Shown here piece after piece: positions 12,106 through 50,891 of a stretch of 64,000 nt of DNA. The notes under the pieces were generated by a model that saw only the letters and a program-made list of their open reading frames with translations, was not told the DNA's origin and ran no database searches. Within the stretch, counting starts at the first letter, position 1; each line of letters starts with the position of its first letter. A program made the translations under genes and the position numbers. Source of the DNA: Alphaproteobacteria bacterium (lineage in GTDB: Bacteria; Pseudomonadota; Alphaproteobacteria; MPNO01; UBA830); the NCBI GenBank assembly GCA_038146925.1, contig JAYQSP010000011.1, positions 42,816 to 106,815 of the forward strand, written 5' to 3'.

Positions 12106-13574
12106 TTTATTTTCAAAACGTTTATAAAAAGCAGCGTTTATCAAATTTTAAATAATTTTATTGATATCTAAGTGGAAAGTAGAAACCAATATTTAAAGAG
12201 GTAAATTGAATGCTAGAAAATTGATTATTGAAATCTACAGATGGTGATATCTCAATATCATTATTTTTACCAAATTTATTAATCATGCCCAAGCTAATTA
12301 CTTCTCTATTCCAATTGTCTACTGACTCATAGGCATAATTTACATAGAAAGTATCTTTATAATTCTGATTAAAGTATTTCTCAACATCTAGATTTATTTG
12401 ATAACCACAACTCAATTCATCCATAGTGATTATAGAATTTTCACACAGAACACCAATAGACATATCTGTTGATAGAATTGTTTGATTTGATTTAGTGTCC
12501 TCATCTAAAATAAAAGTTGTTGAAAGAGGTAATGATATTCTTCGAGATGTGACATTATTTAAATAAAGTTGAATATTTTTCTTTGTTTCACCTAAATAAG
12601 ATGCATTTAAAGAGGTCTTATCTATTTTTTCTTTTCCATAATTATATATAAAGTCTGTTGTATATAACCTATCATTTAAATAAAAATCACCTGTTAAAAT
12701 AAATCCATATGTTTTCCTTAAGCTTTCTGTTTTACCGGCTAAATGGAAACCGTCGCTATCAGAAAAGTCAAAATTGTAATTAACATCGCCAAATGATGTA
12801 TAGACCCCTCCTCTAAATGATTCAGAAATATTTTTATGTGCATAAATTATAATTTCAGAGGTATCTGTTTTTAGATTGCTATTATCAAAACCATACAAAT
12901 TACCGTCTGATTTAGATTTTATTATTCCTATACCTATTAAAGAGGAATCAGAAATATCTTTTTCTAAGATCAAAGAAGCCATAGAAGTCTTTGTTCTATC
13001 ATCAAGATTCTCAAAAGTTATATAACTTACATCAGTATATAGACGTATACTTTTTTCACATTCTAAATGCTGATCACTATAATCAAGACTTATATTGTTA
13101 CTATTTGGTCTAAATTGAGTTCTTGGTTCTTCCTCATAACATCGATTTTTATCATTTATATTCTTTAATATTGATTCATTATAAAAAATTGAATTATTTA
13201 GACTCTTTGAAATTTCATACTCTAAGTTACTTTGAAGTTTTGACTCTATTTCATTTAATTTTATAAGAACTTCCTCTGAATTGGTTACCCTTATTATTAA
13301 AGTTAGTGTTGCATCATTTTCATAAATATCATTTGCAACTATATTTATTAAATAATCATTATTTGTATCAGCATCTGCTGGGTTTTCATAATCTGGAGCT
13401 GATGCAAAAGTTAGAACCCCCGATGAGCTAATACTAAAGAGTGCTGAATCGGTACCGCTTAATGACCAAGTAACACTTTCATCAGCAGTAAAGCTAGTAA
13501 CAGCGGTTTGATTTTCATTGGTCATAATAAAGTCATTATCAATTATGGGGCTGCCATCTTCATTTAGTATTAAA

Positions 13575-18198: not shown

Positions 18199-18696
18199 AT
18201 GTCTTCAAAGAATAGCTCTAACCTAGATAACCTCAAGTATGAATACATCTATGGCAGTATTCATAAAGACGGTAGAAGAAGCTTTAGATCACTAGATAAT
18301 CTTATCAAGGAGTATGAGTTAGCAGCATCTACTGTTTATAGGCACTCTTCTAAAGAACAATGGAAAGATCAACGTGTAGCTTATAGGACTGAATTAAGTG
18401 AAGAGATAAAAAAAGCCAGAAAGCATGACATAGTCAATGATATTGAGATGATTCATAACAAGGCTACTCAAGGTCTTTCATTGATATTAGATAAGGCAAT
18501 TAATTGTTTAGATAATCAAATTCTTAAGCCAAGAGATTTACATAATCTCACTCAAACTATTATTGCTTGTTATAAAAACTTACCTGAAGTAGTTGAAACT
18601 GATGAAGATGATAATGAAGCCTTTAGAGCTGCTATGGATATGTTAGATCAAATAGCTGCTTTTAAGAGAGATACACCAGGCTTTGAGTTTGATTAA
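18199..18696 (+). CDS. Hypothetical protein. Possibly an HTH or terminase-small-subunit-like protein, which is speculative.
   Basis: Intact 165-aa ORF on the opposite strand to the flanking adhesin genes. No signal peptide. Acidic C-terminus. Confidence 0.45.
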   Translation: MSSKNSSNLDNLKYEYIYGSIHKDGRRSFRSLDNLIKEYELAASTVYRHSSKEQWKDQRVAYRTELSEEIKKARKHDIVNDIEMIHNKATQGLSLILDKAINCLDNQILKPRDLHNLTQTIIACYKNLPEVVETDEDDNEAFRAAMDMLDQIAAFKRDTPGFEFD

Positions 18697-19527: not shown

Positions 19528-21100
19528 ATCATTTCTATTATTTGCTCCCCATCCTATAAATGAATTAGCAATAGAGCTAGGTATATAACCTGTATCTACA
19601 AATGTTCCTCTACTATTTGCACTATAAGTTAATGCTGTAGAAACTGCCTCTGTAGCATCTATTTTTCCAAAACCAAACCAATTATGAAATTTGTAGCCGG
19701 CACTATTAGTTTCCCATTCATACAGGGTTATGCCTGATGATGGTGCTCTATAAGTAAAGTCAGAATCTGTTCCTACCTGATCTGCAGTTAGCTAATATAT
19801 GTTTAATATCTCTCCAGGTTAAATTAGGATTTGCTTCAAGCATATAGGGCAACTACTCCAGCAACAGTTGGCGCTGCTGATGAAGTGCCATTAAAAGTGG
19901 TAGTATAATTACAACTAGAATTTGCTGAAAATCCTGAATGATATTTCAAGATTGATGTTTTTCAACAGAAACAAATAATTTTTTTGCCAACGTTCCGTTA
20001 ACAAACGTAATCAGGATAAAGGTTATAGACTTTAAATGTTCAAGATTGATTTGTGAGATATAAAAATTACCTTGCATGATTCCAGATTCTCTACCAAAAA
20101 CCACTTACCCTAAAGATCTTGACTTTTTGAAGCATCTGGATTAACTATAAAATAAGACAAAGATTCTGTTATCCTCAATTAGGGTTTTTTTAAATTAGCA
20201 TAGGCACTCCGTTATGTGGGTCTGTTTTTTGGTAGTACACCAGCCATATTCGCTTCCACACTCATACCATCACCAATTCAATCCAGTTATTTTCCAGCTC
20301 ATTCAAATATTTTGCCCTAAGCCATCTCTAAGATTTAACTCCGTTAACGAGGCCATCTTCTTTTGTAGAAGATAAAAATTACTGTATTAAATGTTTTTGG
20401 ATAGTTTCATCTTCATTTTTGAACCATCCCAATCCATAAGCTGAGCCAGGGTAATAAGGGTTATCTGCTCCATTAATTTTCTGGACAATTTAATCCAAGG
20501 CCCTTAATCTTTTGATATCCAGTTTGATTTTCAAACATTGAAATAATAGCCAATAATTCTTCTGCCTGGAAATCTGCCAAATATTATTCCAACCTTTAAT
20601 GCAATAAGACCTGCAATGCAGTTGTTCCATGATCGCCACTAAAATTTTATTTACTGGAGAGGTATCATTGGATCTGTTATAACGTATTTAAAAAATCATT
20701 ATGAATTTATTTGAAAAATATATTATCAACTAAAATCAACAGTTGCTATTTCCATTAGCATTTTCAAACACACTTGATTCAATTGTAACTTAATATTAGT
20801 AGTCTTTATCAAAATTATATCATCTTGTATTTAAATCAGTTAAAGTTCCTGCATTTACTGAATACTCTTCTGTTTGGCCATTTCTAACATGCCATTGATA
20901 TTGATAAGAGGATCTGTTTTTAAATTATAAGCTTTGACATTAGTCTGTTGAATCAACAGTTCCATCGTTTAGATTAAATGACAAAGCTCAGATTCAACAT
21001 AAAGCTTGCGTACTAGCATCCGTTTGAGAGATTACTGTTGTTAAATCACTAAGAGTTTATTATTGAGAGGCTCGTAACTACATTAGCTGAATATTCAGAT
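19528..21100 (-). pseudogene. Degraded remainder of the S8 protease gene. No ORF of 60 aa or more on either strand.
   Basis: Scattered protein-like frames (e.g. ...GTTALQVLL..., ...NGADNPYYPGSAYGLGWF...) interrupted by stops and frameshifts. Confidence 0.3.
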
Positions 21101-23170
21101 ATGGAGGTTATCACCATCTTCCTCCCAACAGTATCTAAGGTCACCCGATGTTTGTGCATCATTGTGGTTTATAGTAGCAATCGTTTGCTGTAGCAACTGG
21201 AGCATCATTAACATCTAAGTCACACTAATAGTTACGTCTTGAGTTGTTGAATTAGCTCCATCGCTTGCTGCAACTGTTGCTGAATAAGAAGTTCTTGGTT
21301 TCATAGTTTGGAGCTGATCCAAAAGTTAAAACTCCTGAGTAGATGTAATTGCCAATTTAGTACCTGAAATAGTAAAAGTTACATCATCACCCTCTGCATC
21401 CGTAGCTGTCACTGTTCCGATGGCTGTTTGGTTCTCTGCTGAGCTAAAGGTAGCTGATGAAGTAAATGCAGATCATTTACGTTGGTTACATTTATAGTAA
21501 TGTTTTGGGTTGCTGTATTTATTCCATCACTGGCAGTTACTGTAGCTATTGTAATAGCTTTTAGTTTCATAGTTTGGGGCTGATTAAAAGGTCAAAACTC
21601 CTGCAGATGTTATTTCTGATTCAGTACCTGTACCAGAGATGGAATAAGTAACATCATCGCCATCTGCATCAGTTGCTGTTACAGTTCCAATAGAAGTTTG
21701 GTTTTCAGCAGCACTAAAGGTAGCATCTAGAAGTAAATTCAGGCGAGCATTATCAATCAGATTGATACCGTTACAGTAATACCTTGAATGGATAGAGCAA
21801 TAATAATATAGACCCTCTGGTGTGTTATCTGTAACTTTTATAATAGTAGTTCCTGATGAACCAGTATTAACTCCAGTTGTATACTCAGTCCCTCCTCCAT
21901 GAGTGCCATCGGCAGTAGTAGAGAATCTAAATGGATGGGCTGTAGGATGAACGAATGTATAAGTAACTCCTTTAACTAAATCTAAATTTGGTCTTTGAGT
22001 TCCATTAATAACATATACATTTCCAGAGCCATTATTGTTCGCTTCAACACTTACTTGAATGGTCTGTTCGCGAACATCATTGATGTTAATTGTTATTTCT
22101 TGAGTTGATGAGTTTGTTCCATCGGTTGCAGTAACTGTAATTGAATAAGCTAGATTTACTTTCATAATTTGGTGCTGATAGCGAATACCATAACCCTGTT
22201 GATGTTTCATTGATAATAACTTCACTACCGCTTACAGAATAAGTTAGAGCATCACCTTTAGCATTTTAGCACTAACTGTTCCAATTCCAGTTTCATTTCA
22301 TCAACACTAAACGTTGAGCATGCTTATAAATATAGGATTGGCATTAGCAACAGGAACTAGATTATTAGAGTTTGGAAGATATTCAACTCTATTAAATGCT
22401 CTGTCATGAATTTCATATTTAATAATCTCTGCAGCCTCAGCATCAGCGTTTGAAGACATATCATGCCTTGTTACTACATTAAATGTACCATCTTCGTTAT
22501 CAATTAAATCTGATGAGTCAACGATATCACCCACATAACCAACTGAAGTATCACTTGCATGAACATTAATATAGTATCTACATTTCATTAATTTCTTCAG
22601 TGTTGAATTGGTGCCATCACTACCTCTATGATAGAGTCTAGCTATCTTAGAATCCTCTTCTTTAATTAATGCGTGAACTGATAAAACATTATCATTAACA
22701 GTTAGTGTATGAGCTAATAATTCTGGTGCTGTAACCTCTTGACTAGAATTTGTAACTTCAAAGCTCGTCTCAAAATTGCTGTGATATTATTGCATTAATT
22801 GCATTTTTATCTAATGTGTCATATAAACCAAGCTCAACTATTCTATAAATTCCAGATCTAAGTTTATTATTAAAAGATATGCCGACAGCACTTTCTAATA
22901 CTAGTCTGAATTTGCACTATCACAAAGTAAGTATAGTTTTGAACATCTTCATAAAAAGATTTAGTATCAGAATTCTCTAATCTTAAAACAACTTTTGATA
23001 TAGCCGTCTCATCAGTAACCCTAAATTGTATTGAAGTAGAACTATATTTAAAATCAGTATCGCTATTTGTACCAGTTCCCCTTATTTTTAGATCAACAAG
23101 CTCAGGTGGGCCTTCATCTGCATCAGTGACACTTATTGTTATCTCTTGAGATGAAGTGAAAGCGCCATCA
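21100..23170 (-). pseudogene. Fragments of cadherin-repeat adhesin gene(s). Includes ORF 21584..22225 (which has a cupredoxin-like YYYCSIH segment) and ORF 22307..22588.
   Basis: Diverged copies of the 270-bp repeat carrying substitutions and indels. Frames repeatedly broken. Confidence 0.4.
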
Positions 23171-23299: not shown

Positions 23300-24990
23300 C
23301 GCCGTCAGCATCAGTTGCGGTTGCTTGACCAACTGCAGTTGTATTTTCTTCTAATGAATATTCATTAGAAGATGTAATAACAGGGCTATTATCGTTTACA
23401 TTCGTTACATTAACAGTAATATCTTGAGTGGTTGAGTTAGTGCCATCGCTTGGCTGTAACTGTTGCTGTGTAAGAAGACTTAGTTTCATAATCTGGAGCT
23501 GAGGCAAGCGTTAGAACACCAGCTGATGTTATTTCAAGTTCATACCAGATATGATGAAATGTTACTGCATCACCATCAGCATCAGTTGCTGTTACGGTTC
23601 CAATAGCTGTTTGGTTTTCAGCAGCACTAAAGGCAGCTTCTGAAGTAAAGCTTGGGCTATTATCATTAACATTAGTTACATTAACGGTGATATCTTGAGT
23701 GGTTGAGTTAGTGCCATCGCTTGCTGTAACTGTTGCTGAATAAGAAGACTTAGTTTCATAGTCAGGTGCTGATACAAAGGTCAAAACTCCTGCTGATGTT
23801 ATTTCAAGTTCAGTACCTGAAACAGTGAAAGTAACATCATCGCCATCAGCATCAGTTGCTGTTACGGTTCCAATAGCTGTTTGGTTTTCGTCTGCAGTAA
23901 ATGAGTTATTTGAAGTTATAACAGGATTGTTATCGTTTAGGTTATTTACGTTAACTGTAATATCTTGGGTTGCTGTATTTATTCCATCACTGGCTGTTAC
24001 TGTAGCTGTGTAAGTAGACTTTAGTTTCATAGTCAGGAGCTGATACAAAGGTAAGAACACCAGCTGATGTTATTGCTAATTCAGTACCTGAAACAGTGAA
24101 AGTAACATCATCACCTTCTGCATCAGTAGCTGTTACTGTTCCAATAGCTGTTTGGTTTTCTGCTGCACTAAAAGTAGCATCAGAGGTAAACTCGGGTGCT
24201 ATGTCATTTACATTCGTTACATTAACGGTAATGTCTTGGGTTGTTGTATTTAGTCCATCGCTTGCTGTGACTGTTGCTGAATAAGAAGACTTTGTTTCAT
24301 AGTCAGGGGCTGATACAAAGGTCAAAACTCCTGCAGATGTTATTTCTAATTCTGATCCAGAGACAGTAAAGGTAACATCATCTCCTTCTGCATCACTAGC
24401 TGTTACTGTTCCGATGGCTGTTTGGTTTTCTGCTGCACTAAAAGTAGCATCAGAGGTAAACTCGGGTGCTATGTCATTTACATTCGTTACATTAACGGTA
24501 ATGTCTTGGGTTGTTGTATTTAGTCCATCGCTTGCTGTGACTGTTGCTGAATAAGAAGACTTTGTTTCATAGTCAGGTGCTGATACAAAGGTCAAAACTC
24601 CTGCTGATGTTATTTCAAGTTCAGTACCTGAAACAGTGAAAGTAACATCATCGCCATCTGCATCACTAGCTGTTACTGTTCCGATGGCTGTTTGGTTTTC
24701 AGCAGCACTAAAAGTAGCATCAGAGGTAAACTCGGGTGCTATGTCATTTACGTTGGTTACATTAACTGTAATGTCTTGGGTTGCAGAATTATCTTCTGTA
24801 TCTACAACAGTTACTGTGGCAGTATAAGTAGCTTTAGTTTCATAGTCAGGGGCTGATATAAAAGTTAGGGCTCCAGCTGAGGTTATTTCTAGTTCAGTAC
24901 CTGAAATACTAAAACTAAAACTATCTCCTTCTGGATCAGTTGCTGTTACGGTTCCAATAGCTGTTTGGTTTTCTGCAGCACTAAAAGTAG
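23300..24990. repeat. Tandem ~270-bp cadherin-like coding repeats (about 6 units), paralogous to 5400-7080.
   Basis: ORFs 23437..24060 and 23987..24595 translate to repeated ...ENQTAIGTVTATDADGDDVTFTVSGTELEITSAGVLTFVSAPDYETKSSY... Confidence 0.8.
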
Positions 24991-26470
24991 CATCAGAGGT
25001 AAAGACTGGTGCTGCATCATTAATGTCTATAATAGCAATAGTTACATCTTTGGTTACTGTCTCAGTGCCGTCAGTTAAAGATAGAGTAATTACATATGAG
25101 TTCTTAGTTTCATAATCTGGAGCTTCTTTGAAGGTTAGAACATTGTCATCAGATAAATTAAAGCTATCGGCATCGGTGCCACCAAGAGTTAATGTTAATT
25201 CATCTTCATCTACATCTGAGACTGAAACAGTTGTTACTGCTGTTTGGTTCTCTTCTACTTGAATAGTAGATGCTATATCAATAGAGGGTGCATCGTTAAC
25301 GGCTTCAATGGTTACTGTGACATCAGCACTTGAAGTCTTATCGCCTTGAGTGATGGTGTATGAAAAGGAATCACTACCATTATAGTCAGTATCTGGAGAA
25401 TAAGTTATTAGGTTATTAGATATTGATGTTGATCCGTTAGTGCCATTGGTTGCTGATAATGAGAATGGTGATGAAGTAACATAGGAGTCGTTTAACAGTA
25501 CGTTGATTTCTACTTCAGTATCCTCAGATGTAGATACATTATCAGGTATAGCGCTGATATCGGGTGCTATTTCTCCAGAATCTACATTCTGATCTTCAGC
25601 TATATAAGTTAATAGGTCTTCAGTATAACTAGTTACTGTCTCAGCAGTTGCAGTGCCGTTAGCTATAGCTTGGATATCGGTTTGTAGGGTTGAAACCGCA
25701 AAACGTATAACTGAAGTAGTTAAATCATCAGAGGATTTAATTTCAATAACTGGAATATTCCAGAAAGAGCTTTAGTGGTATTTGCTTTAGCTGTCTCATC
25801 AATGGTTACTGATTTTGTTTCTATTACATTTTCTAATGCTTTAGTTACAAAAGCTTGAGTCTCAATATCTACTTTGGTTTCTGTTTCAGTGTATTCTTTT
25901 TCTATCTCTTCAGTGATTGACTTAAAGTAGTCCTGAGTTGTTTCGGTTGTGGTATTTAAATTATTGGTTATGTTCTGCAGGGCAAAAGCAAGAACTGTTA
26001 ACTGGTTACCCTTCTCATACAAATAATCATTAATACCACCATCGCCTTTGTTAGCAACGGATCAAAAGTAAAAACATCAATGGATGCATCTATACCCAAT
26101 GCTGCATTAACCAGTGAAGCATCTTCCATAAAAGCAGCAACTGAAGTTACAGGGGTAACCGCTTTAAACTCTGAATGGCCAGTTAGTTTATGAGTAATTA
26201 AAAGATTATCTAAAAGGGTTTGCGAATCTAAATCGGTTCCACCGATGGATACTAAATTACCGTTAGCATAACGAATGGTAAATTTACCTTCGTTATCTGA
26301 AGTAGTTGAATTTTCATTTGAATCACAAGTCCAACTCTCATCTTCATCAATACAAACTTCAGCCACCGCCTGAAATATAACCATCTACAGCTACACCATC
26401 AGTTTCTCTATAGCCCCCTCAACAGTAACAGATGCTGGAGATTTCTAGTGCCACCTGCACCAGTACACAA
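24991..26470 (-). pseudogene. Second copy of the lipoprotein adhesin N-terminal region (paralog of 7082..8475). Indel-riddled and truncated at the GC junction.
   Basis: 90-98% nucleotide identity to 7090-8475, with many small indels (e.g. at 25750, 26050, 26370-26440). ORFs 25720..26022 and 25998..26384 match the 565-aa protein. The homology stops at about 26470, about 300 nt short of where the start would be. Confidence 0.55.
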
Positions 26471-26505
26471 GTAAAAAATTCTTTTTATCTTTAAAAGAAA
26501 TATTT

Positions 26506-26667
26506 GCGACCTACGAATGCTCGACCGACGCCGACATCGCGGCGTTCGCCGATATCGTCAACCGGGCCGGGTATTCGTCCCCTGTACGCACGCCGCGCGG
26601 GCGCGATATACTGGCGGCCTGCGGGCAGCTGAAAACCGCCAGCGAGCGGGAACGGAAAATCGCCTGA
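26506..26667 (+). CDS. C-terminal fragment (54 codons) of an unknown GC-rich gene, truncated at the junction.
   Basis: Open frame ...[55 protein letters not shown]3 codon bias matches the downstream genome. No start codon. Confidence 0.35.
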
Positions 26668-26691
26668 ACGAAAACAGACGGGTGAACGGCG

Positions 26692-27162
26692 ATGGACTGG
26701 AAAGACGTGACGCCGGAAGAAGCGGCGGAAAACAGATACTACGGCGTCGGCGGCTGGCTGCTGGTGTTTTACGTGCTTGGCGTGCTGGGATTTCTCGCGT
26801 CGTTTGCGGGCCTGCTGTCGTTGGAAATGCTGAAGCGGACATTTGGCGATAACTATATGATTCTCGCCGGCCTCGGCGTCGTTCAGGGGATCCTGTATCT
26901 GCCGTTTCTGATCCTGGCGCCGCAGAAACACCCTTTGATGCCCAGGGCCGCCATTTCCGCGCTCTGGCTCAGTGTCGTGGTGACGGCGATCGCGGGCATG
27001 GTCGCCGATCCTAGCCAGATGATGGGTCAGTTGATCTTCAGCGTCGTCATGGTGGCCCTGTTTGCCTGGTATCTCCGCAAGTCGAAGCGGGTAAACGTGA
27101 CGTATCTCCACCGGGTGCCGGTGGAAGAGCACGCGGATACGGCCGAAAGGCCGACCGATTAG
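26692..27162 (+). CDS. Hypothetical membrane protein (DUF2569-like).
   Basis: 156 aa with 4 predicted TM segments. GC3-rich codons. The antisense 213-aa ORF is Arg-rich noise. Confidence 0.55.
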   Translation: MDWKDVTPEEAAENRYYGVGGWLLVFYVLGVLGFLASFAGLLSLEMLKRTFGDNYMILAGLGVVQGILYLPFLILAPQKHPLMPRAAISALWLSVVVTAIAGMVADPSQMMGQLIFSVVMVALFAWYLRKSKRVNVTYLHRVPVEEHADTAERPTD

Positions 27163-27331
27163 TGCGTCATTCCCGCGAAGGCGGGAATCTCTATCAGGAC
27201 AGAACGGGCAAAAAGATCCCCGCCTGCGCGGGGATGACGGTTCAAAGGCGCCTTTAGTATGAACGTCCCCACCTTGCCGCGCCCGGCGGAATGCCTATAC
27301 TCCGCGCGCGCTAGAAATTAGGGAATATTCC

Positions 27332-28552
27332 ATGGCCGGACCAAGACCCGGAGAGGTCAATAAAATCGTGCTCGCCTATTCGGGCGGGCTGGATACATCC
27401 GTCATCCTGAAATGGCTGCAGCAGACTTATGACTGCGAGGTCGTCACCTTCACCGCCGATCTGGGGCAGGGCGAAGAGGTCGAACCGGCGCGGGCCAAGG
27501 CCGAAGCCGCGGGCGTGAAGGAAATCTATATCGATGATTTGCGCGAGGAATTCGTCCGCGATTTCGTGTTTCCGATGTTCCGGGCCAACGCGCTGTACGA
27601 AGGCATCTATCTGCTCGGCACCTCGATCGCCCGGCCGCTGATCTCCAAGCGCCAGATCGAAATCGCCCGTGAAACCGGCGCCGACGCCGTCAGCCACGGC
27701 GCTACCGGCAAGGGCAACGATCAGGTCCGGTTCGAACTTGGCTATTACGCGCTGGAACCCGATATCAAGGTCATCGCGCCGTGGCGCGAATGGGATCTCG
27801 ATTCCCGCACCAAGCTGATGGAATTCGCGCGAAACAACCAGATCCCGATCTCGCGCGACAAGATCGACGAGCCGCCCTATTCGACCGACGCCAATCTTCT
27901 GCATATTTCATACGAAGGAAAGGCGCTGGAAGATCCGTGGGTCGAGGCCGACGATGCGATGTACACGCGCTCCGTCTCCCCGGAAAACGCGCCCGACACA
28001 CCGACCTATATCGAGATCGAGTTCGAGGCGGGCGACGCGGTGGCGATCGACGGCGAAAAGATGTCGCCGGCGACCCTGCTGACCAAGCTGAACGAGCTCG
28101 GCGGCGCCAACGGGATCGGCCGGATCGATATCGTCGAAAACCGCTATGTCGGCATGAAGTCGCGCGGCGTCTACGAAACGCCCGGCGGCACGATCCTGGC
28201 CGCGGCCCATCGCGGGATCGAATCCCTCACGCTGGATCGCGGCGCCGCGCATCTGAAGGACGAGCTGATGCCGCGCTACGCGGAGCTGGTCTATAACGGG
28301 TTCTGGTTCTCGCCCGAGCGCGAAATGATCCAGGCGGCGGTCGACGAAAGCCAGAAGCACGTATCGGGCACCGTGCGGCTGAAACTGTTCAAGGGATCGG
28401 TCACCGTGGTGGGCCGCAAATCTCCGGTCAGCCTCTATTCCGAACAGCACGTCACATTCGAGGCCGACACCGTCTACGACCAGCGCGACGCCGAGGGCTT
28501 TATCAAGCTGAACGCCCTGCGTCTGCGGCTGATGAACGCCCGCAAGGGATGA
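27332..28552 (+). CDS. argG: Argininosuccinate synthase.
   Basis: 406 aa. PP-loop AYSGGLDTS. Conserved ...[13 protein letters not shown]..., ...[14 protein letters not shown]... Confidence 0.95.
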
Positions 28553-29430
28553 CGACCGGCACCGGGGTCGCCATGCCCCGGTTTCTGATCGCGGCCTGCT
28601 GGGCGTTGCTCGCGGCCGCCAGCTTCGCCGTGATGATGACGAGCGTCCGTTATATGGACGGCAAGTTCGATGCGTTCGAGATCGTGTTTTTCCGGGCGCT
28701 GATCGGTATCTTCCTGATTGTCCCGATCGTCTCGAAATCGGGATTTACGGCGCTCCGAACCGACCGGCTTCCGATGCACGTCGTGCGGACACTATTCGCG
28801 CTGTTCGCCATGGCGACGCTGTATTACGCGCTGGAATTCATTCCGGTCGCTCAGGCGGTCGCGCTGACCTTCCTGATTCCGCTGTTCACGACGATCGCCG
28901 CCGGTACGGTGCTGCGCGAAAAGGTCGGGCTACATCGCTGGGGCGCAACGCTGGTGGGCTTCGGCGGGGCGCTGATCATCATCCGCCCCGGTGTCGCCGA
29001 TATCAGCCTGCCGGTCCTGCTGGCGGTGCTGTCGTCGGCGCTCTATGCCGGCGCGTGGTCGAGCGTGAAGATTCTCACCCGGACCGATTCCGCCGCGGTT
29101 ACGGTGTTCTGGATGAACCTGCTGATGGTGCCGCTGACGGCGATCCCGCTGATTTTCGTCTGGGTCACGCCGGCCCCGGAGGATATCCTGCCTATCGCGA
29201 TCATGGCGCTGTCCGGCTGGGCGGCGCATTTCTGCCAGGCGCGGGCGTTCGAATCCGCCGATGCCAGCGCGGTCATGCCGTTCGATTTCCTGCGTCTGCC
29301 GCTGGGCGCGCTGTTCGGCTATTTCCTGTTCGCGGAGCTGGTCGACGGCTGGACCTGGGCCGGCGCAGTGGTGATCTTCCTGGCGGGCTATTACATCACC
29401 CGGCGCGAGGCCCTCCGGAAAGCTTCCTAG
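28549..29430 (+). CDS. EamA/DMT-family transporter.
   Basis: 293 aa, 10 TM. Two EamA-like halves. ATGA start/stop overlap with argG. Confidence 0.8.
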
Positions 29431-30122
29431 GCCGGGAACAGATGCATCCCGAACACGGTCTCGTGCACAAACAGAATGACGAGATAAAGCACGCTTCCCA
29501 GCGCCACCCGCCACCAGCCGACATCGCGCATCACCAGCGTGCGGCGGCCTTCGAGAATGGCGCGAAACGGCGTGCGGGACGTGCCTGCCCGGAACGATCG
29601 CCAGGCATCGTCCGCGTTGGCGTCGCGCCGCATGTCGATATGCACCATGCCCAGAGTCGAGAGCGCCAGCATGCCGCCGAAAAACAACACGGCGGCCAGA
29701 TCCCCCCGCACGAACAGATGCGCCAGCGACCATAGCGCGATGGCCGCCATCATCGGGTGGCGGACGATCGCGTATATGCCTTTGCCCGGCGCGTTCTCGT
29801 AATGCAGGTTGTCCATGCCCACCATCGTGGGGTTGCGGGTGGTGACGCTGCAAACGAAGAACACGGTGGCGAAATACATCAGGATCAGGATGACCGGCGG
29901 GCCCAGAATGCCGGCATTCCACAGCGGCACGTAGGGCGCGTCCATATAGGCGGTAATCATCCAGTACAACGCGGCAATCATCAGGACCGAGTAGACGCCG
30001 CGAAACGGCCTTTCGCCCATCATGCCGGTCAACGGGCCGCGCACCGGTGCGCTCGACAGCAGAAAATGACCGCCGGCGAAGGCGAGGGTCGCGAAGGCGA
30101 GGGTGATCAGGGCAGGGTCCAT
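29427..30122 (-). CDS. NnrU/ICMT-like family membrane protein.
   Basis: 231 aa. Polytopic. ...AIVRHPMMAA... motif typical of the NnrU/isoprenylcysteine-methyltransferase-like fold. Confidence 0.6.
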   Translation of the reverse strand: MDPALITLAFATLAFAGGHFLLSSAPVRGPLTGMMGERPFRGVYSVLMIAALYWMITAYMDAPYVPLWNAGILGPPVILILMYFATVFFVCSVTTRNPTMVGMDNLHYENAPGKGIYAIVRHPMMAAIALWSLAHLFVRGDLAAVLFFGGMLALSTLGMVHIDMRRDANADDAWRSFRAGTSRTPFRAILEGRRTLVMRDVGWWRVALGSVLYLVILFVHETVFGMHLFPA

Positions 30123-30137
30123 GCGTAACCCTACAAG

Positions 30138-31028
30138 CTAGATGTCGGGTACTTCAATTCCATTCTGGCGGCACGCGGCGACCAGTGTGTTGCGAAGCAG
30201 GCAGGCGATGGTCATCGGACCGACCCCGCCCGGTACCGGCGTGATGGCGCCCGCGTGTTTTACGGCCTCGTCGAATTCGACGTCGCCGACCAGACGCATT
30301 TTGCCTTCTTCCTCGGCCGGCACCCGGTTGATGCCGACGTCGATCACCGTGGCGCCCGGCTTGATCCAGTCGCCCCCGATCATCTGCGGGCGGCCGACGG
30401 CGGCGACCAGGATATCGGCCTCGCGGCAGACGCCGGGCAGGTCCCGGGTGCGCGAATGGGCGATGGTGACCGTGCAGTTGGCGTCGAGCAGCAGCTGCGC
30501 CATCGGTTTGCCGACAATGTTGGAGCGCCCCACCACGACCGCGTTCATCCCGGTAAGGTCGCCGAGGCGATCTTCTAGAAGCATGCGACAGCCCAGCGGC
30601 GTGCAGGGCACCATGCCGCCGCGCCCGGTCGCCAGCAGGCCCACATTGCGCAGATGGAATCCGTCGACATCCTTGGCGGGGTCGATGGCGTCGATGACCG
30701 AATTCGGGTCGATCTGGTCGGGCAGGGGCAGTTGCACCAGGATGCCGTGCACTGCCGGATCGGCGTTCAGCTTGTCGATGGCGGCCAGCAGGTCGGCCTG
30801 GGTCGTATCCGCCGGCAGCGTTTCGCCCAGCGACCGCATGCCGGCCTCGACCGTCTGTTTGTTCTTGTTGCGGACATAGACCTGGCTTGCCGGGTCTTCG
30901 CCGACCAGCACGGCGGCGAGGCCCGGCACGATGCCGTGTTCGGCGGTCAGCTTCGCGGTCTCGACGGCGATCCGTTCCCGCAGCCCCGCGGCGAACGCCT
31001 TGCCGTCGATGATATTGTAATTCGCCAT
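30138..31028 (-). CDS. folD: Bifunctional methylenetetrahydrofolate dehydrogenase/cyclohydrolase.
   Basis: The internal Met [16 protein letters not shown]... at 31028 gives 297 aa. Motifs ...YVRNK..., ...GILVQLPLP..., ...[12 protein letters not shown]... The track's 436-aa ORF is an upstream read-through extension. Confidence 0.92.
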
Positions 31029-31036
31029 TCGAAAAA

Positions 31037-31339
31037 TCAGGTCGCGATCCAGATATAGACCTGGCGCAATACGCCGTCCTTGATGAAGATCAGCAGCAGA
31101 ATGGCGATCAGCGGCGAGAAGTCGATCCCGCCGAAATTCGGCAGCATGTTGCGGATCGGCCGCAGGACGGGTTCGGTGATCCGGTACAGAAAATCGCCCA
31201 CCGTATAGACGAACCGGTTGCTGGTGTTGATCACGTTGAATGCGATCAGCCAGCTCAGAATCGCCGATATGATGAAACACCACATGTAGAGGTTCACGAC
31301 GACGTCGAGAAGATTGAAAAGGGTAGCGATCAGCTGCAT
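31037..31339 (-). CDS. YggT-family membrane protein.
   Basis: 100 aa from Met at 31339 ([20 protein letters not shown]...). Immediately upstream of folD. Confidence 0.7.
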
Positions 31340-31524
31340 GAAATGGTGCCTGTGAGTGTGAGGCCGCAGGGTAGCGGCGGCCCGATTCGCGTGCAAGCGG
31401 ATCGGCATCGGGTACGCGTTTCTCCTCTGTCCAACAATCTGCGGTCAAATCGTTTCAGATTGCTTGACAGGACCCCGCTTCCTACACATTATCCGCCCGC
31501 CCGATCCTCCGGGGTCGGCACCGT

Positions 31525-31600
31525 GGGGCCGTAGCTCAGCTGGGAGAGCGCTGCGTTCGCAATGCAGAGGTCGGGAGTTCGATCCTCCTCGGCTCCACCA
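31525..31600 (+). tRNA. tRNA-Ala (anticodon CGC).
   Basis: GGGGCCGTAGCTCAGCTGGGAGAGCGCTGCGTTCGCAATGCAGAGGTCGGGAGTTCGATCCTCCTCGGCTCCACCA. Has the G3:U70 pair. Anticodon loop TTCGCAA. T-arm GGTTCGATCC-like. Encoded CCA. Confidence 0.9.
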
Positions 31601-31641
31601 ACTCCTCTTGAAACGCCTGCAGGAGCGCCGGGACGGACAGG

Positions 31642-32079
31642 CTAGCCCAGCCCCGCCTTCCACCGGTCGGTCAGCCTGAACACAGTAAACGCCGCCGACC
31701 ACGCCATCATCAGCAGGCCGATCAGGGCCTCGAAGCCGCAGATCGTCCGCAGGTAGCCGGTCGGGACGATTTCGCCGTATCCCAGCGTGGTGTAATTGAC
31801 CAGCGAGATATAGAGATAGTCCCGCGCGCTGCCGTCGAATGCCCCGTCCAGCGTGCCGAGCTGCAGGATTTCCTGCCCGACATACAGCGCGCCGGCGAAC
31901 ACCCACACCTCGATCGAGTGCGCGAGGAAAAGCGTGAACACACCCACCAGCAGCCCGATGCGCACCGGCCAGCGCACCCGGTTCGCCAGCTTCGACATCA
32001 GGGTCATGATCTCGAAATGGATCAGGATGACGATCGCCGACGTCACCGCCGTCAGCAATGTCGCGACAATCATCTGCAT
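31642..32079 (-). CDS. Two-TM potassium-channel family protein.
   Basis: 145 aa. Selectivity-filter-like YTTLGYGE between two TM helices. Confidence 0.75.
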   Translation of the reverse strand: MQMIVATLLTAVTSAIVILIHFEIMTLMSKLANRVRWPVRIGLLVGVFTLFLAHSIEVWVFAGALYVGQEILQLGTLDGAFDGSARDYLYISLVNYTTLGYGEIVPTGYLRTICGFEALIGLLMMAWSAAFTVFRLTDRWKAGLG

Positions 32080-32117
32080 AGCCCCCTAACGTCCCGCTCT
32101 CGACAAGTGGACCAATA

Positions 32118-33626
32118 ATGAATAATCCAGAGCCCATGACAAGCGGATCCTTCACCGAACGCCACGGGTTGCGCGACGCGGCGCAGGCGGCGCTGGCGGA
32201 CGAGGTGCTGAAACAGGTCGAGGCCGACGGGCTGCAGCTGATCCGCCTTGCGTGGGCGGACCCGCACGGCGCGGCGCGGGCCAAGGCGGTGACGCCCGAT
32301 GCGTTCCGGGCGGCCATGGTCGACGGCTATAACATCAATGTCGCGACCTCGACGCTGGATGCGTCGGGTGGGCGCGTGTTCGCGAGTTTCGTGCCCGGCG
32401 GCGGCATGGGGCTGGCCGAAATGACGGGATCGCCCAACCTCGTCATCGTGCCCGACCCGGAAACGTTCCGCGTCCTGCCCTGGGCGCCCGGCGTGGGCTG
32501 GATCCTGTGCGACGAATATTTCCGCGACGGCACGCCGTTTCATTTCTCGACGCGGCATCTGTTGCGCAAGCAGGTCGCGCGGCTGGCGGACGCCGGCATG
32601 CGGCATGTCGTCGGCCTCGAGGTCGAATGGTATCTCGCCCATCTGACGCAGGACCGCCTGACGGCGGAAAACACCGGCGTTCCCGGCCGCCGCGGCCTTC
32701 CGCCTGAAACCGCGCCGCTCGAACCCGGATATTCCTATCACTCGGAAACCAATCTCGACGTGATGCAGCCGATGCTGAGCGCGCTGGCCGGCGCCTACAC
32801 GGACATCGGGCTGCCGCTGCGGTCGGTCGAAAACGAATACGGTCCCGGCCAGGTCGAATGCACGTTCACGGCGGACGACGCGATGCGCGCGGCCGACAAC
32901 TACGTTCTGTTCCGCACCGCGACGCGCCAGGTGTGCCGCCGTCAAGGGTATTTCGCGACATTCATGTGCCGCCCGGGACTGGCGGGGCATTTTTCAAGCG
33001 GCTGGCATCTGCACCAGTCGGTCGTCGGCGCGGCAAGCGACGAGAACCTTTTCACGCCGGGTACCGATGCGGATGCCCTGTCGGAAAAGGGCAGCGCCTT
33101 TCTTGCCGGTCTGCTCGACCACACGCTGCCCGCCACCGTGTTCGCGTCCCCCACCGTGAACGGTTTTCGCCGGTTTCAGCCGAATTCCCTGGCTCCGAAC
33201 CGGGCCACCTGGGGGACGGATCATCGCGGTGCCCTGATGCGCGTGATTTCAGCGTCGGGCGATCCGGCTTCGCGGATCGAGAACCGGGCGGGCGAACCGG
33301 CGGCCAATCCGTATCTGTTCATCGCTTCGCAGATCGCGGCGGGGCTCGATGGGATCGAACGCGGACTGTCCCTGGCCCCGCCCGACGACGCGCCCTACGA
33401 GTCCGACAAGCCGCTGCTGCCGGCGTCGCTGGCGGAGGGGCTGGAGGCGCTGGCGCAGGACGGCTTCTATCGCTCCGTTTTCGGCGATGTTTTCACGGAT
33501 TACTATCTCGGCCTGAAAAACGCCGAACTGGATCGCTACCGCCAATATTGCGAAGATGAAGGCATCGGCGAAAACGACGCCGACGTGACCGGGTGGGAGC
33601 AGAACGAATATTACGATTTCTTCTGA
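32118..33626 (+). CDS. Glutamine synthetase family protein (GS-like gamma-glutamyl ligase, GlnT/PuuA/TdnQ-like).
   Basis: 502 aa. GS catalytic-domain-like blocks ...GLEVEWY..., ...ENEYGPGQVE..., ...GWHLHQS... Adjacent to Rieske oxygenase genes. Confidence 0.8.
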   Translation: MNNPEPMTSGSFTERHGLRDAAQAALADEVLKQVEADGLQLIRLAWADPHGAARAKAVTPDAFRAAMVDGYNINVATSTLDASGGRVFASFVPGGGMGLAEMTGSPNLVIVPDPETFRVLPWAPGVGWILCDEYFRDGTPFHFSTRHLLRKQVARLADAGMRHVVGLEVEWYLAHLTQDRLTAENTGVPGRRGLPPETAPLEPGYSYHSETNLDVMQPMLSALAGAYTDIGLPLRSVENEYGPGQVECTFTADDAMRAADNYVLFRTATRQVCRRQGYFATFMCRPGLAGHFSSGWHLHQSVVGAASDENLFTPGTDADALSEKGSAFLAGLLDHTLPATVFASPTVNGFRRFQPNSLAPNRATWGTDHRGALMRVISASGDPASRIENRAGEPAANPYLFIASQIAAGLDGIERGLSLAPPDDAPYESDKPLLPASLAEGLEALAQDGFYRSVFGDVFTDYYLGLKNAELDRYRQYCEDEGIGENDADVTGWEQNEYYDFF

Positions 33627-33665
33627 TCCCCGCGGCACCGCCGGAAACCGCGAGGACCGCGTGAC

Positions 33666-35033
33666 ATGGACGGACTGACACCGACACCCGACAGCCGCCT
33701 CGACGGCTACGATTTCGACTACCTGATCCAGGAGGATCGGGTTCATCGCCATATCTATACGGAGGAGCCGATTTTCCGCGCCGAGATGACGCGCGTCTTC
33801 GGCGCCGTCTGGGTGTATCTCGGCCATGAAAGCGAAATTCCGGACAACGACGATTTCGTCCAGACCTGGCTGGGCCTGCGGCCGATCATCCTGGTCCGCG
33901 ATTCCGACGGGAATATCCGCGCGCTCTACAATCGGTGCACCCATCGCGGGTCCACCGTCTGCCGCCGACAATCAGGATCGGCAAAGGCGTTCCAGTGTCC
34001 GTATCACGGCTGGACATTTCGCAACAACGGCGAAATCACCGGCGTCCCCTGGCCGGAAGGCTATGCCGACGATTTTTCCGATTCCAAGTTCAACCTGGCG
34101 CAGGTGCCGCGGGTCGATTCCTACAAGGGCTTCGTTTTCGGCACGCTGAACATGGCGGCGCCGTCGCTGATGGACTATCTCGGCCCCGTCGCAAAACCGC
34201 TCGCCGAATGGGTCGACCGGCATCCCGGCGGGAAGGTCGCGCTCTGCAATGCGAACCGTCTCAAGCTGCACGGCAACTGGAAGCTGGTCTACGACAATTC
34301 GGCGGACGGCTATCATGTCGTCTTTTCGCACCGCTCGCTGCTGGCCATGGAGAACCGCCTGTCCGAGGAGGGCGACAAGGGCATGGCTTTCTACAAGGAA
34401 AGCCCCGATACGGCGCCCATGTACGTCTACTATTTCGGCAACGGCCATCACTTCAAGGACAAGCGCGGCAATGTGGAACGCGACAAGCCCGGCGCGCTGT
34501 GGGAGATAGAGGGCGTCGCGCCGGGGATGGAATATTTCGAGGACAAGCTGCGCCGCGAACATCCCGGCCGCGCGGACGAATTCCTCGATCTCGCCGCGTC
34601 CGAGCCGATGAACATCAATGTGTTTCCCAATCTGCACATCCTCGGCAACCACATCCAGGTCGTGCGGCCGATTTCGGTGACCGAAACCGACACCACCTGG
34701 TGGGGCACGGCGGTGGTCGACGACGAGGGGGTGCTGGACGGGGCGGTCGACGATATCAACGCCATCCGGATGCGGACACAGGAAGGCTTTCCCAATTTCG
34801 GCGAAGTCGACGACCTGATGAATTTCGAACAGATCCAGGTCGGGCTGCAGGCGGAAGAGGACGAATGGGCCTATACCCATCGCGGCCTGGGACTTCCGGA
34901 CAGGTTTTCGGTCGACGAAGCCGGCACGATCAAGGGACCGGCGACGGACGAGGTTTTCCTGCGCGAATACTTCAGGGAATATCGCCGCCTGATGACGACG
35001 CGTCCCGATATCCAGATCGCGCGGGAGGTGTGA
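33666..35033 (+). CDS. Rieske non-heme iron ring-hydroxylating oxygenase, alpha subunit.
   Basis: 455 aa. Rieske CTHRG-x15-CPYHGW. Mononuclear iron ...DNSADGYHVVFSH... Confidence 0.9.
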   Translation: MDGLTPTPDSRLDGYDFDYLIQEDRVHRHIYTEEPIFRAEMTRVFGAVWVYLGHESEIPDNDDFVQTWLGLRPIILVRDSDGNIRALYNRCTHRGSTVCRRQSGSAKAFQCPYHGWTFRNNGEITGVPWPEGYADDFSDSKFNLAQVPRVDSYKGFVFGTLNMAAPSLMDYLGPVAKPLAEWVDRHPGGKVALCNANRLKLHGNWKLVYDNSADGYHVVFSHRSLLAMENRLSEEGDKGMAFYKESPDTAPMYVYYFGNGHHFKDKRGNVERDKPGALWEIEGVAPGMEYFEDKLRREHPGRADEFLDLAASEPMNINVFPNLHILGNHIQVVRPISVTETDTTWWGTAVVDDEGVLDGAVDDINAIRMRTQEGFPNFGEVDDLMNFEQIQVGLQAEEDEWAYTHRGLGLPDRFSVDEAGTIKGPATDEVFLREYFREYRRLMTTRPDIQIAREV

Positions 35034-35040
35034 TCCGGTC

Positions 35041-35622
35041 ATGAACGCGAACCCGGCCCGGACGTCTTACTATGTTGACGATGATTTCTACGCGGACCTG
35101 ACGGCCGCGTTTTCGGATTGGCAGTCGGAGGAGGCGGAGATCGCCGATCCGGCCCGGCGCGATGAATTCCGCCGCCTGCTGGAGCGCGAGGCGCGCCTGC
35201 TGGAACAGGACCGCCACGCCGACTGGCTGGCCATGTACGCGCCGGAATGCCTGTACTGGGTACCCGCGTCGGCGGATGGCGGCGACCCGAAACGGGAGGT
35301 CGCGATCGCCTTCGACGACCGGCGCCGGCTCGAGGACCGGGTGTACCGGCTGGGCACCGACTATGCCTGGTCGCAGCAGCCGCCGTCGCGCACCAGCCGG
35401 ATCGTGTCCAACGTCGCCGCCTTCGAAACTGCCGACGATGCGGTCGTCATGATCCGGTCGAATTTTCTGATCACCGAATTCCAGGCGGGGGATTACCGGA
35501 CATGGGCCGGCTGGGCAGGGCACCGTCTGCGGCGGAACGGCGATGGATGGGAAATCCTGGTCAAGCAGGTCAACCTGATCAATTACGACCAGAACCTCCG
35601 CAATCCGAGCATCACGCTTTAG
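35041..35622 (+). CDS. Ring-hydroxylating dioxygenase beta subunit (SnoaL-like fold).
   Basis: 193 aa, 8 nt after the alpha subunit. Beta-subunit-like ...ECLYWVPAS..., ...RIVSNV... Confidence 0.8.
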   Translation: MNANPARTSYYVDDDFYADLTAAFSDWQSEEAEIADPARRDEFRRLLEREARLLEQDRHADWLAMYAPECLYWVPASADGGDPKREVAIAFDDRRRLEDRVYRLGTDYAWSQQPPSRTSRIVSNVAAFETADDAVVMIRSNFLITEFQAGDYRTWAGWAGHRLRRNGDGWEILVKQVNLINYDQNLRNPSITL

Positions 35623-35650
35623 CCGGTCTTTTCAGCGAAGATCGGGAATG

Positions 35651-35680
35651 AAAAAAGGCGGCTCACCGAGCCGCCTTTCT
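35651..35680. terminator. Bidirectional rho-independent terminator.
   Basis: AAAAAAGGCGGCTCaccGAGCCGCCTTTCT: 8-bp GC stem flanked by an A-run and a T-run. Lies between convergent genes. Confidence 0.6.
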
Positions 35681-35700
35681 CATGTTTTCTTTTCCGTCCT

Positions 35701-36153
35701 TCAGGACATGCCGTCCAGATCGCCGATGACCTGGCCGGGATGATCCGCCGGCGTCACCTCGTCATAGGCGGCGGCGACTGTTCCGTCCGGCCCGATCAGC
35801 ACGGATTTGCGCGGCGAGCGCGGGCTGTCCGGTTCCGAAACGCCGAAGGCGACGGAAACAGCGCCGTCCTCGTCGCTGAGGAGGTCGTAGGGGAAAGAGA
35901 ATTTGTCGCGAAACGCGCCATTGTCCGCCGGGCTGTCGTAGGAAACGCCGACGATGGATGCGTTGCGGTCTTCGAAGTCCTGGATTCGATCACGGAACCC
36001 GTTGCCTTCGATGGTTCAGCCGGGTGTGTCGGCTTTGGGATACCACCAGAGCAGGACGTAGCGACCGGCGAAGTCGTCTTTTTTCACCGTCTTACCGTCC
36101 TGGTTCGGGAGGCTGAAATCCGGCGCTTCCGCGCCGGAGGCAATTAAGGCCAT
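35701..36153 (-). CDS. bcp: Bcp/PrxQ-type peroxiredoxin with in-frame TGA (candidate selenocysteine) at the peroxidatic Cys position, codon 45 (TGA 36016-36018).
   Basis: Minus-strand translation: MALIASGAEAPDFSLPNQDGKTVKKDDFAGRYVLLWWYPKADTPG[TGA]TIEGNGFRDRIQDFEDRNASIVGVSYDSPADNGAFRDKFSFPYDLLSDEDGAVSVAFGV...IGPDGTVAAAYDEV...*. Matches E. coli Bcp ...YFYPKAMTPGCT...DNM... GGAG RBS 9 nt upstream of the ATG. No other stops in frame. Confidence 0.6.
35971..36011 (-). promoter_or_regulatory. Candidate bacterial SECIS-like hairpin immediately 3' of the in-frame UGA.
   Basis: mRNA UGA-ACCA-UCGAAGG-CAACG-GGUUC-CGUGAUC-GAAUC-CAGGA-CUUCGA. Outer stem UCGAAG/CUUCGA, inner stem GGUUC/GAAUC, apical loop CGUGAUC containing GU. 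Confidence 0.35.
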
Positions 36154-36225
36154 TCAGGTTGCTCCATTCGATGTATCGTACCGGAGAAGTATATCATCTG
36201 GTGACCGACTCCGACATAGCGGCAT

Positions 36226-36256
36226 AAAAAAACCCGGCGCGGGGCGCCGGGTTTTT
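36226..36256. terminator. Rho-independent terminator (bidirectional).
   Basis: AAAAAAACCCGGCGCggggCGCCGGGTTTTT. Downstream of the small zinc-ribbon gene. Confidence 0.7.
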
Positions 36257-36274
36257 AACTTATCGATCGGTAGA

Positions 36275-36454
36275 TCAGACGAAATCGGGCTCGCTGCGTT
36301 TGCGGCAGCGCAGGCACAGGCGGTTGTGCCAGCCTTCGCTCGCGAATTTCTCGCCGCACGACATGCAGGGTCGCTCGGTGGGTACATCGCTCACCGCGCG
36401 ATGGTCCATCACCAGTTCTTCAGCTTCCAGCGAGCTTGTGTTCGATTCGCTCAT
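36275..36454 (-). CDS. Small zinc-ribbon protein (CxxC...CxxC), hypothetical.
   Basis: 59 aa: MSESNTSSLEAEELVMDHRAVSDVPTERPCMSCGEKFASEGWHNRLCLRCRKRSEPDFV. GGGAG RBS. Below the 60-aa track cutoff. Followed by a strong terminator. Confidence 0.45.
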   Translation of the reverse strand: MSESNTSSLEAEELVMDHRAVSDVPTERPCMSCGEKFASEGWHNRLCLRCRKRSEPDFV

Positions 36455-36815
36455 CTAATGGCTCCCTCTTCGTAATTGATTACGACGTAATCGTCAGTTG
36501 TCCCAACCACCGTTGCGGTGGCACCAATTTTTACGCTCTTCGGCGATTTGCCTCCCGCAAACCCGCTTTTTGAAAGCACTTTTCCGTGAGGTAGCCCTTC
36601 CGGATACCTCCGTGCCGGCGGTTATTACGGTTTGATTACTTCCCCATCCTTGCCTGCGCGAGCGGAAACGGACTTCCCGCCCGGAAGGGGGCCGCGTCGG
36701 GTGTTATGCCCCGATTTCGTCGATCCCCAATACTTAGTATTCTAACATATTCCGTCGGGAAATGGGTAATGAATCCGTCATCTCGAGGGCATTTTCCGCG
36801 TATGCAACGGAGCGT

Positions 36816-36846
36816 GCGGAATCGCGCGGATTCTGCGCGATTCCGC
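36816..36846. other. Perfect 12-bp inverted repeat (GCGGAATCGCGC-ggattct-GCGCGATTCCGC) in the 400-bp intergenic region downstream of the GlcG-like gene.
   Basis: Read directly from the sequence. No U-tract, so this is more REP/operator-like than terminator-like. Confidence 0.4.
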
Positions 36847-36861
36847 CTTGGCCCGGGCTAA

Positions 36862-37284
36862 TCAGAAAGATTGGCTTCCCGGAATGGCGGCGATCGCCGC
36901 GGTCGCGACCTCGCGATCCTGTTCTCCCGTGCCCGATCCGACGCCCACTCCGCCGATACAGTGGCCGTCAACGATGATGGGCAGGCCGCCCGGCAGATTG
37001 ATGCGCTGTCCGTCCGTGCCAAGAGCCAGCTTGATGTCGACGCCTTCCATGAGCCCGCCCGAAGGGTCGCCGTAGCAGGCCGCCGTGCGGGCCTTGCGCA
37101 GCGACGTTTCCAGCGACATGTGAAAGGCGCCGTCCATGCGGACGAACGCCAGAAGGTTGCCGCCGTTGTCGACCACCGAGATGCATTGCGGCTGACCCAT
37201 ATCGGCCGCTTTGGCGATACCAGCGTTCAGCGCGGCAAGCGCCCCTTCATGCGTGAGTTTCAGAAACTGCGCCGTTTCGGCCAT
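36862..37284 (-). CDS. GlcG/HbpS-like (DUF336) heme-binding-domain protein.
   Basis: 140 aa. ...ISVVDNGGNLLAFVRMDGA..., ...IVDGHCIGGVGVSGG... family-like blocks. Confidence 0.75.
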   Translation of the reverse strand: MAETAQFLKLTHEGALAALNAGIAKAADMGQPQCISVVDNGGNLLAFVRMDGAFHMSLETSLRKARTAACYGDPSGGLMEGVDIKLALGTDGQRINLPGGLPIIVDGHCIGGVGVGSGTGEQDREVATAAIAAIPGSQSF

Positions 37285-41455: not shown

Positions 41456-42361
41456 ATGCGGGTCGTATTCATGGGCACACCCGATTTTTCCGTGTCCGCG
41501 CTGGCGGCGCTGATCGAGGCCGGTCACGAGATCGTCTGCGTTTATTCCCAGCCGCCCCGTCCGGCCGGGCGCGGTCACAGGGAAAAGCCGTCGCCGGTTC
41601 AGGCATTCGCGGAATCGAAGGGTCTCGCCGTTCGATATCCGGTCAGCCTCAAAGACGCAGAGGCCCAGGCGGATTTCGCGGCGCTCGACGCGGATGTCGC
41701 CGTTGTCGCGGCCTACGGGTTGATCCTGCCCAGGCCTGTCCTGGAGGCGCCCCGTCTGGGATGCATAAACATCCACGCGTCCCTCCTTCCCCGGTGGCGC
41801 GGTGCCGCGCCGATCCAGCGGGCCATTCTGGCGGGCGATACGGAAACCGGGATTACCATCATGCAGATGGACGAAGGGCTCGATACCGGCCCGATGCTGG
41901 CGGCCGAAGCCGTGCCGATTACCGGCAGCACCACGGCATCGGGCCTGCACGATGCACTGGCCGATATCGGCGGACGTCTGATCGTCGACGTGCTGTCGGG
42001 CGACCTGCCCCCCGCCGTGCCGCAACCGGAAGAGGGCGTCACCTATGCGGCCAAACTCGACCGTGCCGAGGGTCGCATCGACTGGACCGAAAGCGCGGCC
42101 GCCCTCGATCGTCGGGTGCGGGCGCTGAACCCCTGGCCCGGTGTCTGGTGCGAACGCGACGGCGAGCGCCTGAGGATACTGGCGGCCACTCCGGTGGACG
42201 GGAACGGAGATCCCGGAACCGTCATCGCCGAGCCCCTCACCATCGCGTGCGGCGACGGTGCATTGAAGGTCGAGCGGGTCCAGCGCGCCGGGAAATCGGC
42301 CATGCCGGCGGCCGATTACGCGCGCGGCAATCCGGCGGCGGTCGGCGCCGTTCTCTCATGA
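41456..42361 (+). CDS. fmt: Methionyl-tRNA formyltransferase.
   Basis: 301 aa. ...FMGTPDF..., ...[20 protein letters not shown]... Confidence 0.95.
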
Positions 42362-50888: not shown

Positions 50889-50891
50889 GAC

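Follow-up and report, generated by a model that had tools for sequence, protein, structure and literature searches.

A probable inter-genome misassembly joining SAR86-type DNA to alphaproteobacterial DNA in a marine metagenome contig

Chimeric contigs in metagenome assemblies are described as inter-genome translocation misassemblies, a class that MetaQUAST and metaMIC use and that outnumbered the other kinds of misassembly in the simulated benchmark metagenomes of CAMI (PMC9661791). We compared a stretch of 64,000 nucleotides (the window, by which we mean the whole of the DNA analysed) with this class, with horizontally acquired genomic islands and with contamination of the bins from which metagenome-assembled genomes (MAGs) are drawn. 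Bin contamination is flagged by tools such as GUNC and CheckM. The window consists of two segments that belong to different bacterial classes, a SAR86 gammaproteobacterium on the left and an alphaproteobacterium on the right, and a gene is cut short on each side of the point where they meet. The segments, the bases between them and the genes that bear on the join are as follows.

1 to 26,469, no strand: SAR86-type (Gammaproteobacteria) segment, 34.8% GC.
5,479 to 8,779, minus strand: adhesin copy A, with a lipoprotein-type signal, an N-terminal domain and then Big_9/cadherin-like repeats.
19,961 to 21,757, minus strand: decayed remnant of a further adhesin gene, inside the 19.8–23.4 kb stretch.
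23,416 to 26,469, minus strand: adhesin copy B, frameshifted, its 5' end (about 240–310 nt, signal peptide included) missing.
26,470 to 26,505, no strand: junction zone, 36 AT-rich bases, aagtaaaaaattctttttatctttaaaagaaatattt, matched to neither partner.
26,506 to 64,000, no strand: alphaproteobacterial segment, 62.4% GC, with housekeeping genes; it carries genes for a DUF2569 protein, argG, EamA, NnrU, folD, tRNA-Ala, a glnA-like gene, yidC, rnpA, argB, dapD, dapE, truA and others.
26,506 to 26,667, plus strand: 3' fragment of rlmN (23S rRNA A2503 methyltransferase), codons 320–372 and the stop.

The step in base composition was located first by GC content alone. GC was 34.8% over 1–26,505 and 62.4% over 26,506–64,000, a difference of 27.6 points. 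The preliminary description of this DNA had reported a discontinuity of about 30 points at about 26,471, with a right side of about 65% GC; the abrupt step is real, while its size and the right-hand value were both set somewhat too high. A two-segment maximum-likelihood changepoint scan of GC over the whole window put the end of the left segment at base 26,505, which refines the position given earlier. In 1-kb bins, GC ranged from 26 to 40% up to 26,000 and from 58 to 67% from 27,000 on, and in a 60-nt profile the climb fell within 26,480–26,520. The GC contrast between flanking 2-kb stretches was 0.24 at the join, versus at most 0.106 at any other point of the window. Comparison of tetranucleotide usage between the two sides had also been proposed, and was carried out on 6-kb chunks normalised for base composition. 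Each side proved coherent (correlation of 0.73 left to left and 0.87 right to right) and the two were uncorrelated with each other (−0.09), which points to two genomes. The shift in base composition and oligonucleotide signature at 26,505 is thus point-like, as expected of an inter-genome chimeric contig.

For a more direct view of the right-hand border, we turned to public contigs that carry the same genes. The first complete gene past the join encodes a DUF2569 protein (26,692–27,162) and is followed by argG and an EamA transporter gene. At least 23 public contigs encode exactly this DUF2569 protein, and the six with the most flanking DNA (L001–L006; one belongs to the NCBI MAG GCA_964633385.1 and the other five to ENA metagenome assemblies) were compared with the window. 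DNA identity to the window was 98.7–99.9%, and the alignment started at exactly 26,506 in all six. An intact rlmN of 372 codons lies directly upstream of the DUF2569 gene in every one of these native contigs, preceded by genes for EamA, MFS, IalB, SpoU, methyltransferase, SIR2 and RND pump proteins, and each of the six independent assemblies runs unbroken through the point that matches 26,506. In the 100 nt just before the join, the window agrees with the native high-GC sequence at 23 positions, which is the random level. The breakpoint can therefore be fixed to about 40 bases without reads, by comparison with independent assemblies.

Only the 3' end of rlmN is left in the window. The fragment comprises 53 codons and a stop, and no in-frame start codon is present back to the upstream stop; it had been described earlier as a start-less plus-strand fragment of 54 codons, which is accurate save for the count. 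The radical-SAM CxxxCxxC motif is missing from it. The encoded peptide equals the C-terminus of the 372-residue RlmN of contig L005 except for P321T, a difference that comes from the A at 26,509. This base is C in six of six native contigs, and when the window is compared with contig L002 it is the sole difference over the next 3 kb.

Beyond the border, the right side of the window follows its native counterparts. The six contigs are collinear with it over 26,506–37,163, and contigs L171–L174, likewise in the range of 98.7–99.9% identity, over 41,580–60,889, a region that includes yidC, rnpA, argB, dapD, dapE and truA. Some relatives of the right-side proteins in clusters of 90% identity sit on ENA contigs of 3.30–3.38 Mb, and cluster members are named as MAGs of 'Alphaproteobacteria bacterium' or 'Rhodospirillaceae bacterium'. 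The content of this segment, with argG, folD, a glnA-like gene, yidC, rnpA, argB, dapD, dapE and truA, is core chromosome and not accessory DNA. One further irregularity was seen at 46,650–46,661, where about 3.9 kb of native sequence in L171 and L172 is absent from the window; the missing DNA comprises part of a DUF2336 gene, a PAS-GGDEF gene and EAL genes. The edges of this deletion overlap by 12 nt, L174 also diverges here, and L173 has a different deletion of 1.7 kb at the same place. The gap may be due either to a hotspot of strain-level indels or to a second collapse in assembly.

The left segment contains giant genes for repetitive surface proteins along with one FMO-like and one GDSL-like gene, and its very large minus-strand genes encode Big_9, cadherin-like, HYR, Ig-like and invasin-D3 domains. 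The adhesin, the FMO/GDSL genes and the 16.6–18.1 kb genes match SAR86 single-cell and metagenome loci at 72–86% nucleotide identity, and the genes adjoining the adhesin are syntenic with SAR86 loci. The right side gave zero hits to the SAR86 loci that match the left. The adhesin has abundant relatives in marine metagenomes, 265 of which were confirmed; among named genomes, its close relatives are nearly all from SAR86 single-cell or metagenome genomes, with 59–87% amino acid identity over most of the protein. SAR86 genomes are 1.05–1.66 Mbp long with 31–40% GC (PMC11582366), a range that the 34.8% GC of the left side fits. Short contigs obtained independently in JGI metagenomes and Logan assemblies (L007–L012) match 8,436–13,067 at 99.6–100%, showing that the left organism exists separately. 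For the exact proteins of 18,199–18,696 and 25,998–26,384, no public record was found.

Several other features of the left segment were recorded. The lowest GC of the window (26–31%) is found over 9,000–13,000, which holds the FMO-like gene and genes for unannotated proteins of 332 and 259 residues, and GC steps of about 10 points occur near 8,750 and 13,350. A 43-nt motif at 23,484–23,526 recurs six times, with 86% identity, inside Ig-like surface-protein genes (at 13,384, 15,284, 15,578, 16,172, 16,484 and 16,778). Adhesins with a lipoprotein signal and Big_9/cadherin domains form a family that is widespread in SAR86, and a single genome can carry several loci (AG-912-C05 has three and AAA076-P13 two, for instance); the words 'adhesin' and 'cadherin' are both absent from the SAR86 isolate paper (PMC11582366). 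An alternative genetic code was considered for the broken open reading frames of this side. Tables 4 and 25 failed to yield long frames, and code 11 stands.

The gene cut on the left is the second of two adhesin copies. Copy A begins with an ATG at 8,779, its N-terminus, MRSRGSYSLRTVIAITAAFIISSC, is a lipoprotein-type signal (...AAFIISSC), and the protein matches the Pfam families Big_9, Cadherin, Cadherin_4 and Cadherin_5. Copy B (23,416–26,478) aligns with copy A (5,433–8,491) at 84% identity overall and at about 96% in the last 920 nt, and clear homology between the two stops at 26,469; measured to the ATG of copy A, about 288–310 nt are absent. In alignments across the left side, the match of relatives to copy A extends to about 8,707–8,726. 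When relatives were queried with 26,300–26,505, by comparison, alignments ended mostly at 26,467, a few reached 26,487–26,496 and none passed 26,496. Copy B is thus cut about 240–310 nt before the start codon that copy A and over 100 relatives retain, in agreement with the preliminary description, which had it ending about 300 nt short of its start. The truncation was judged against a paralogue (copy A) and relatives.

Toward the break, the sequence of copy B also deteriorates, a feature that had gone unremarked before. Relative to copy A, the last 920 nt carry 34 substitutions and indels of 1, 1, 4, 2 and 5 nt; three of these five indels lie within the final 105 nt before the break, and the last 40 codons are spread over three reading frames. 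It is also possible that the frameshifts in copy B reflect genuine pseudogene decay instead of consensus error. The stretch 23,385–25,021 forms a tandem array of six 270-nt units with 84% identity, which encode the Big_9/cadherin-like repeats of copy B, and copy A carries the same repeat family. Compared with copy B, a 1-nt indel splits copy A itself near 7,085–7,094 into two overlapping frames (7,085–8,791 and 5,479–7,092). Its SAR86 relatives are single open reading frames of 945–1,678 residues, and the split may stem from an error in the consensus or from a real frameshift.

A third, more heavily decayed adhesin locus was detected at 19,961–21,757. Searches by tblastn with intact relatives of 1,361–1,478 residues found matches in all three minus-strand frames, at 30–39% amino acid identity, although nucleotide identity is 70–75%. 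The surrounding 19.8–23.4 kb has a median longest open frame of 65 residues, compared with 418–1,809 in the other stretches measured; this paucity contrasts with the coding density of about 96% reported for the lineage. The loss of frames could be due to a mixed-strain consensus or to a true pseudogene.

Between the end of copy B and the start of rlmN lie the 36 AT-rich bases of the junction zone (26,470–26,505), the second thing absent from the preliminary description. By composition the zone sides with the left segment. It does not recur elsewhere in the window, even when 3 mismatches are allowed, and comparison with 170 related loci gave no significant match. To our knowledge, it is unlike the common Illumina, Nextera, ONT and PacBio adapters. 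Microhomology at the join was considered and rejected: the native partners share no stretch beyond a few bases.

The border was also searched for traces of mobile DNA. Repeats across it amount only to chance matches of 11–23 nt; no transposase gene, terminal inverted repeats or target-site duplication occurs within 2 kb of the join, and no tRNA or att direct repeats were found at the border. Integrase, transposase and phage domains were absent from the left open reading frames (Pfam, NCBIfam) and from the native right-side genes (precomputed Pfam). The sole tRNA, a tRNA-Ala at 31,525–31,600, is located 5 kb into the high-GC segment, at a position that it also has in the native contigs; an Rfam scan detected nothing else in the window. 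The repeat, tRNA and domain scans thus agree with the earlier report of no direct repeats, tRNA, integrase, IS ends or att-like sequence at the boundary. Neither GTDB species representatives nor JGI metagenome contigs contain the 25-mer abutting the join, and IMG/VR viral contigs lack a 48-mer across the junction; no independent sequence in the collections searched reproduces the join.

To locate the join among public records, six exact proteins, three from each side, were looked up. All six gave the same figure for the longest contig, 1,389,458 bp at NCBI, and we infer from this shared figure that a single deposited contig carries both sides. The FMO-like protein of the left side was found on that contig alone. 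The join most likely resides within this deposited record and was not created on cutting the window. That it arose instead when the 64-kb window was cut from separate records, and exists in no public sequence, is very improbable. The contigs found to encode the queried exact proteins did not include the 1,389,458-bp one, as this reading would have it, but it sits poorly with a figure shared by three proteins per side and with the FMO-like protein that occurs there only. The common alleles of genes downstream of the break were recorded on the 1.39-Mb contig in three of three cases, whereas the common alleles of six native genes upstream of it (full rlmN, EamA, MFS, IalB, SpoU and SIR2) are not on this contig. 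An insertion of a SAR86 block into rlmN, with the other half of the gene nearby, was rejected on the suggestive evidence of these six missing alleles.

Two origins, an exact breakpoint, a gene cut on each side and an uninterrupted native sequence in the right-hand organism are demonstrated by these comparisons. Judged from sequence, the join is probably an inter-genome misassembly in a marine metagenome contig, and is best read as an artefact, not as a biological feature. The assembled contig would link SAR86 DNA (1 to about 26,490) to unrelated alphaproteobacterial DNA (26,506 on), two pieces that in nature would reside in different cells. The break falls where an adhesin locus that is rich in repeats and varies between strains comes to an end; the consensus there appears to be poor already, and assemblers are likely to lose the true path at such loci; one chimeric or mis-overlapped read could then have bridged to the second genome. 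The succession of an indel cluster, 36 unassignable bases and a private mismatch at 26,509 would represent a thinly supported consensus. From this decay in sequence quality toward the break, we infer that the join was made by an assembler and not by a person. With no k-mer in common between the partners at the join, a chimera of the simple de Bruijn-graph kind is unlikely. The size of the 1.39-Mb contig suggests a long-read or scaffolded assembly, and the join may have come about through a chimeric long read, during scaffolding or gap closing, or by concatenation without a spacer.

The last of these routes is a possible but clearly less likely account in its own right, in which two separately assembled contigs were united end to end with no N spacer, so that 26,505 and 26,506 are contig ends. 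SAR86 and alphaproteobacterial contigs could, with the same modest likelihood, have been merged through a contaminated bin or in a scaffolding or gap-closing step. The right-hand match begins cleanly at 26,506 in all six comparisons, as a contig end would, and the left side stops in a repeated gene, where short-read assemblies break as well: the JGI and Logan contigs of the same organism terminate at 8,436–8,714, in copy A. Errors at contig ends would also account for the indels as well as for the 36 junction-zone bases and the private mismatch at 26,509. A record made of many contigs should contain more joins, however, and the window is collinear on both sides wherever native contigs exist; moreover, binning that takes account of composition would seldom unite contigs of 35% and 62% GC. 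An inter-genome misassembly is the reading that we prefer.

The preliminary description had likewise favoured a chimera over an acquired island, and its judgement is borne out by an rlmN that is intact in six of six native contigs, by the different classes of the two sides, by the housekeeping nature of the DNA and by the lack of any mobile-element signature. A physically real junction, in which at least 37 kb of core chromosome passed between SAR86 and an alphaproteobacterium by very recent transfer or illegitimate recombination, with no mobile-element machinery, no amelioration yet and either a SAR86 cell or an alphaproteobacterium as host, is the least credible account of all: both segments most likely lie on one deposited contig and both organisms are marine bacterioplankton that could co-occur in a sample, but the cargo is housekeeping DNA (argG, folD, yidC, rnpA, argB, dapD, tRNA-Ala) that is unameliorated and 99.4–99.9% identical to free-living genomes, integrase, IS, att site and repeat are all absent, a border gene is destroyed on each side, the donor sequence continues through the breakpoint in six assemblies, the join-abutting 25-mer is missing from GTDB representatives and JGI contigs and the junction from IMG/VR, and the count of common alleles on the 1.39-Mb contig (none of six upstream, three of three downstream) speaks against insertion into rlmN.

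The join has no biological significance, and is useful solely for flagging a problem of data quality. At least 37.5 kb of alphaproteobacterial housekeeping DNA appears to lie on a public contig whose length, 1,389,458 bp, is close to that of an entire SAR86 genome. Left unflagged, the join would inflate the gene content of streamlined SAR86 with a second argG, folD, yidC and so on, would yield false evidence of horizontal transfer, and would contaminate reference databases and pangenome analyses.

Compared with the described systems, the window most resembles an inter-genome translocation. As in that class, there is a single sharp breakpoint whose sides map to different genomes, composition shifts across it, genes are cut, and a biological junction signature is absent. 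It differs from the usual short-read chimera, which is built on shared k-mers, in that its partners share no sequence at the join. The window resembles a horizontally acquired genomic island in its abrupt shift of GC and codon usage over tens of kilobases. Unlike islands associated with an integrase or tRNA, however, it has a border with no integrase, tRNA or att repeat, and carries no accessory cargo; the 'island' here is core chromosome from a different organism, matched at about 99.9% identity, and the genes at its border have been truncated, not duplicated or restored. With MAG bin contamination it shares the presence of DNA from two lineages under one genome label. It goes beyond mere bin contamination in that the two lineages appear to be joined within a single sequence record.
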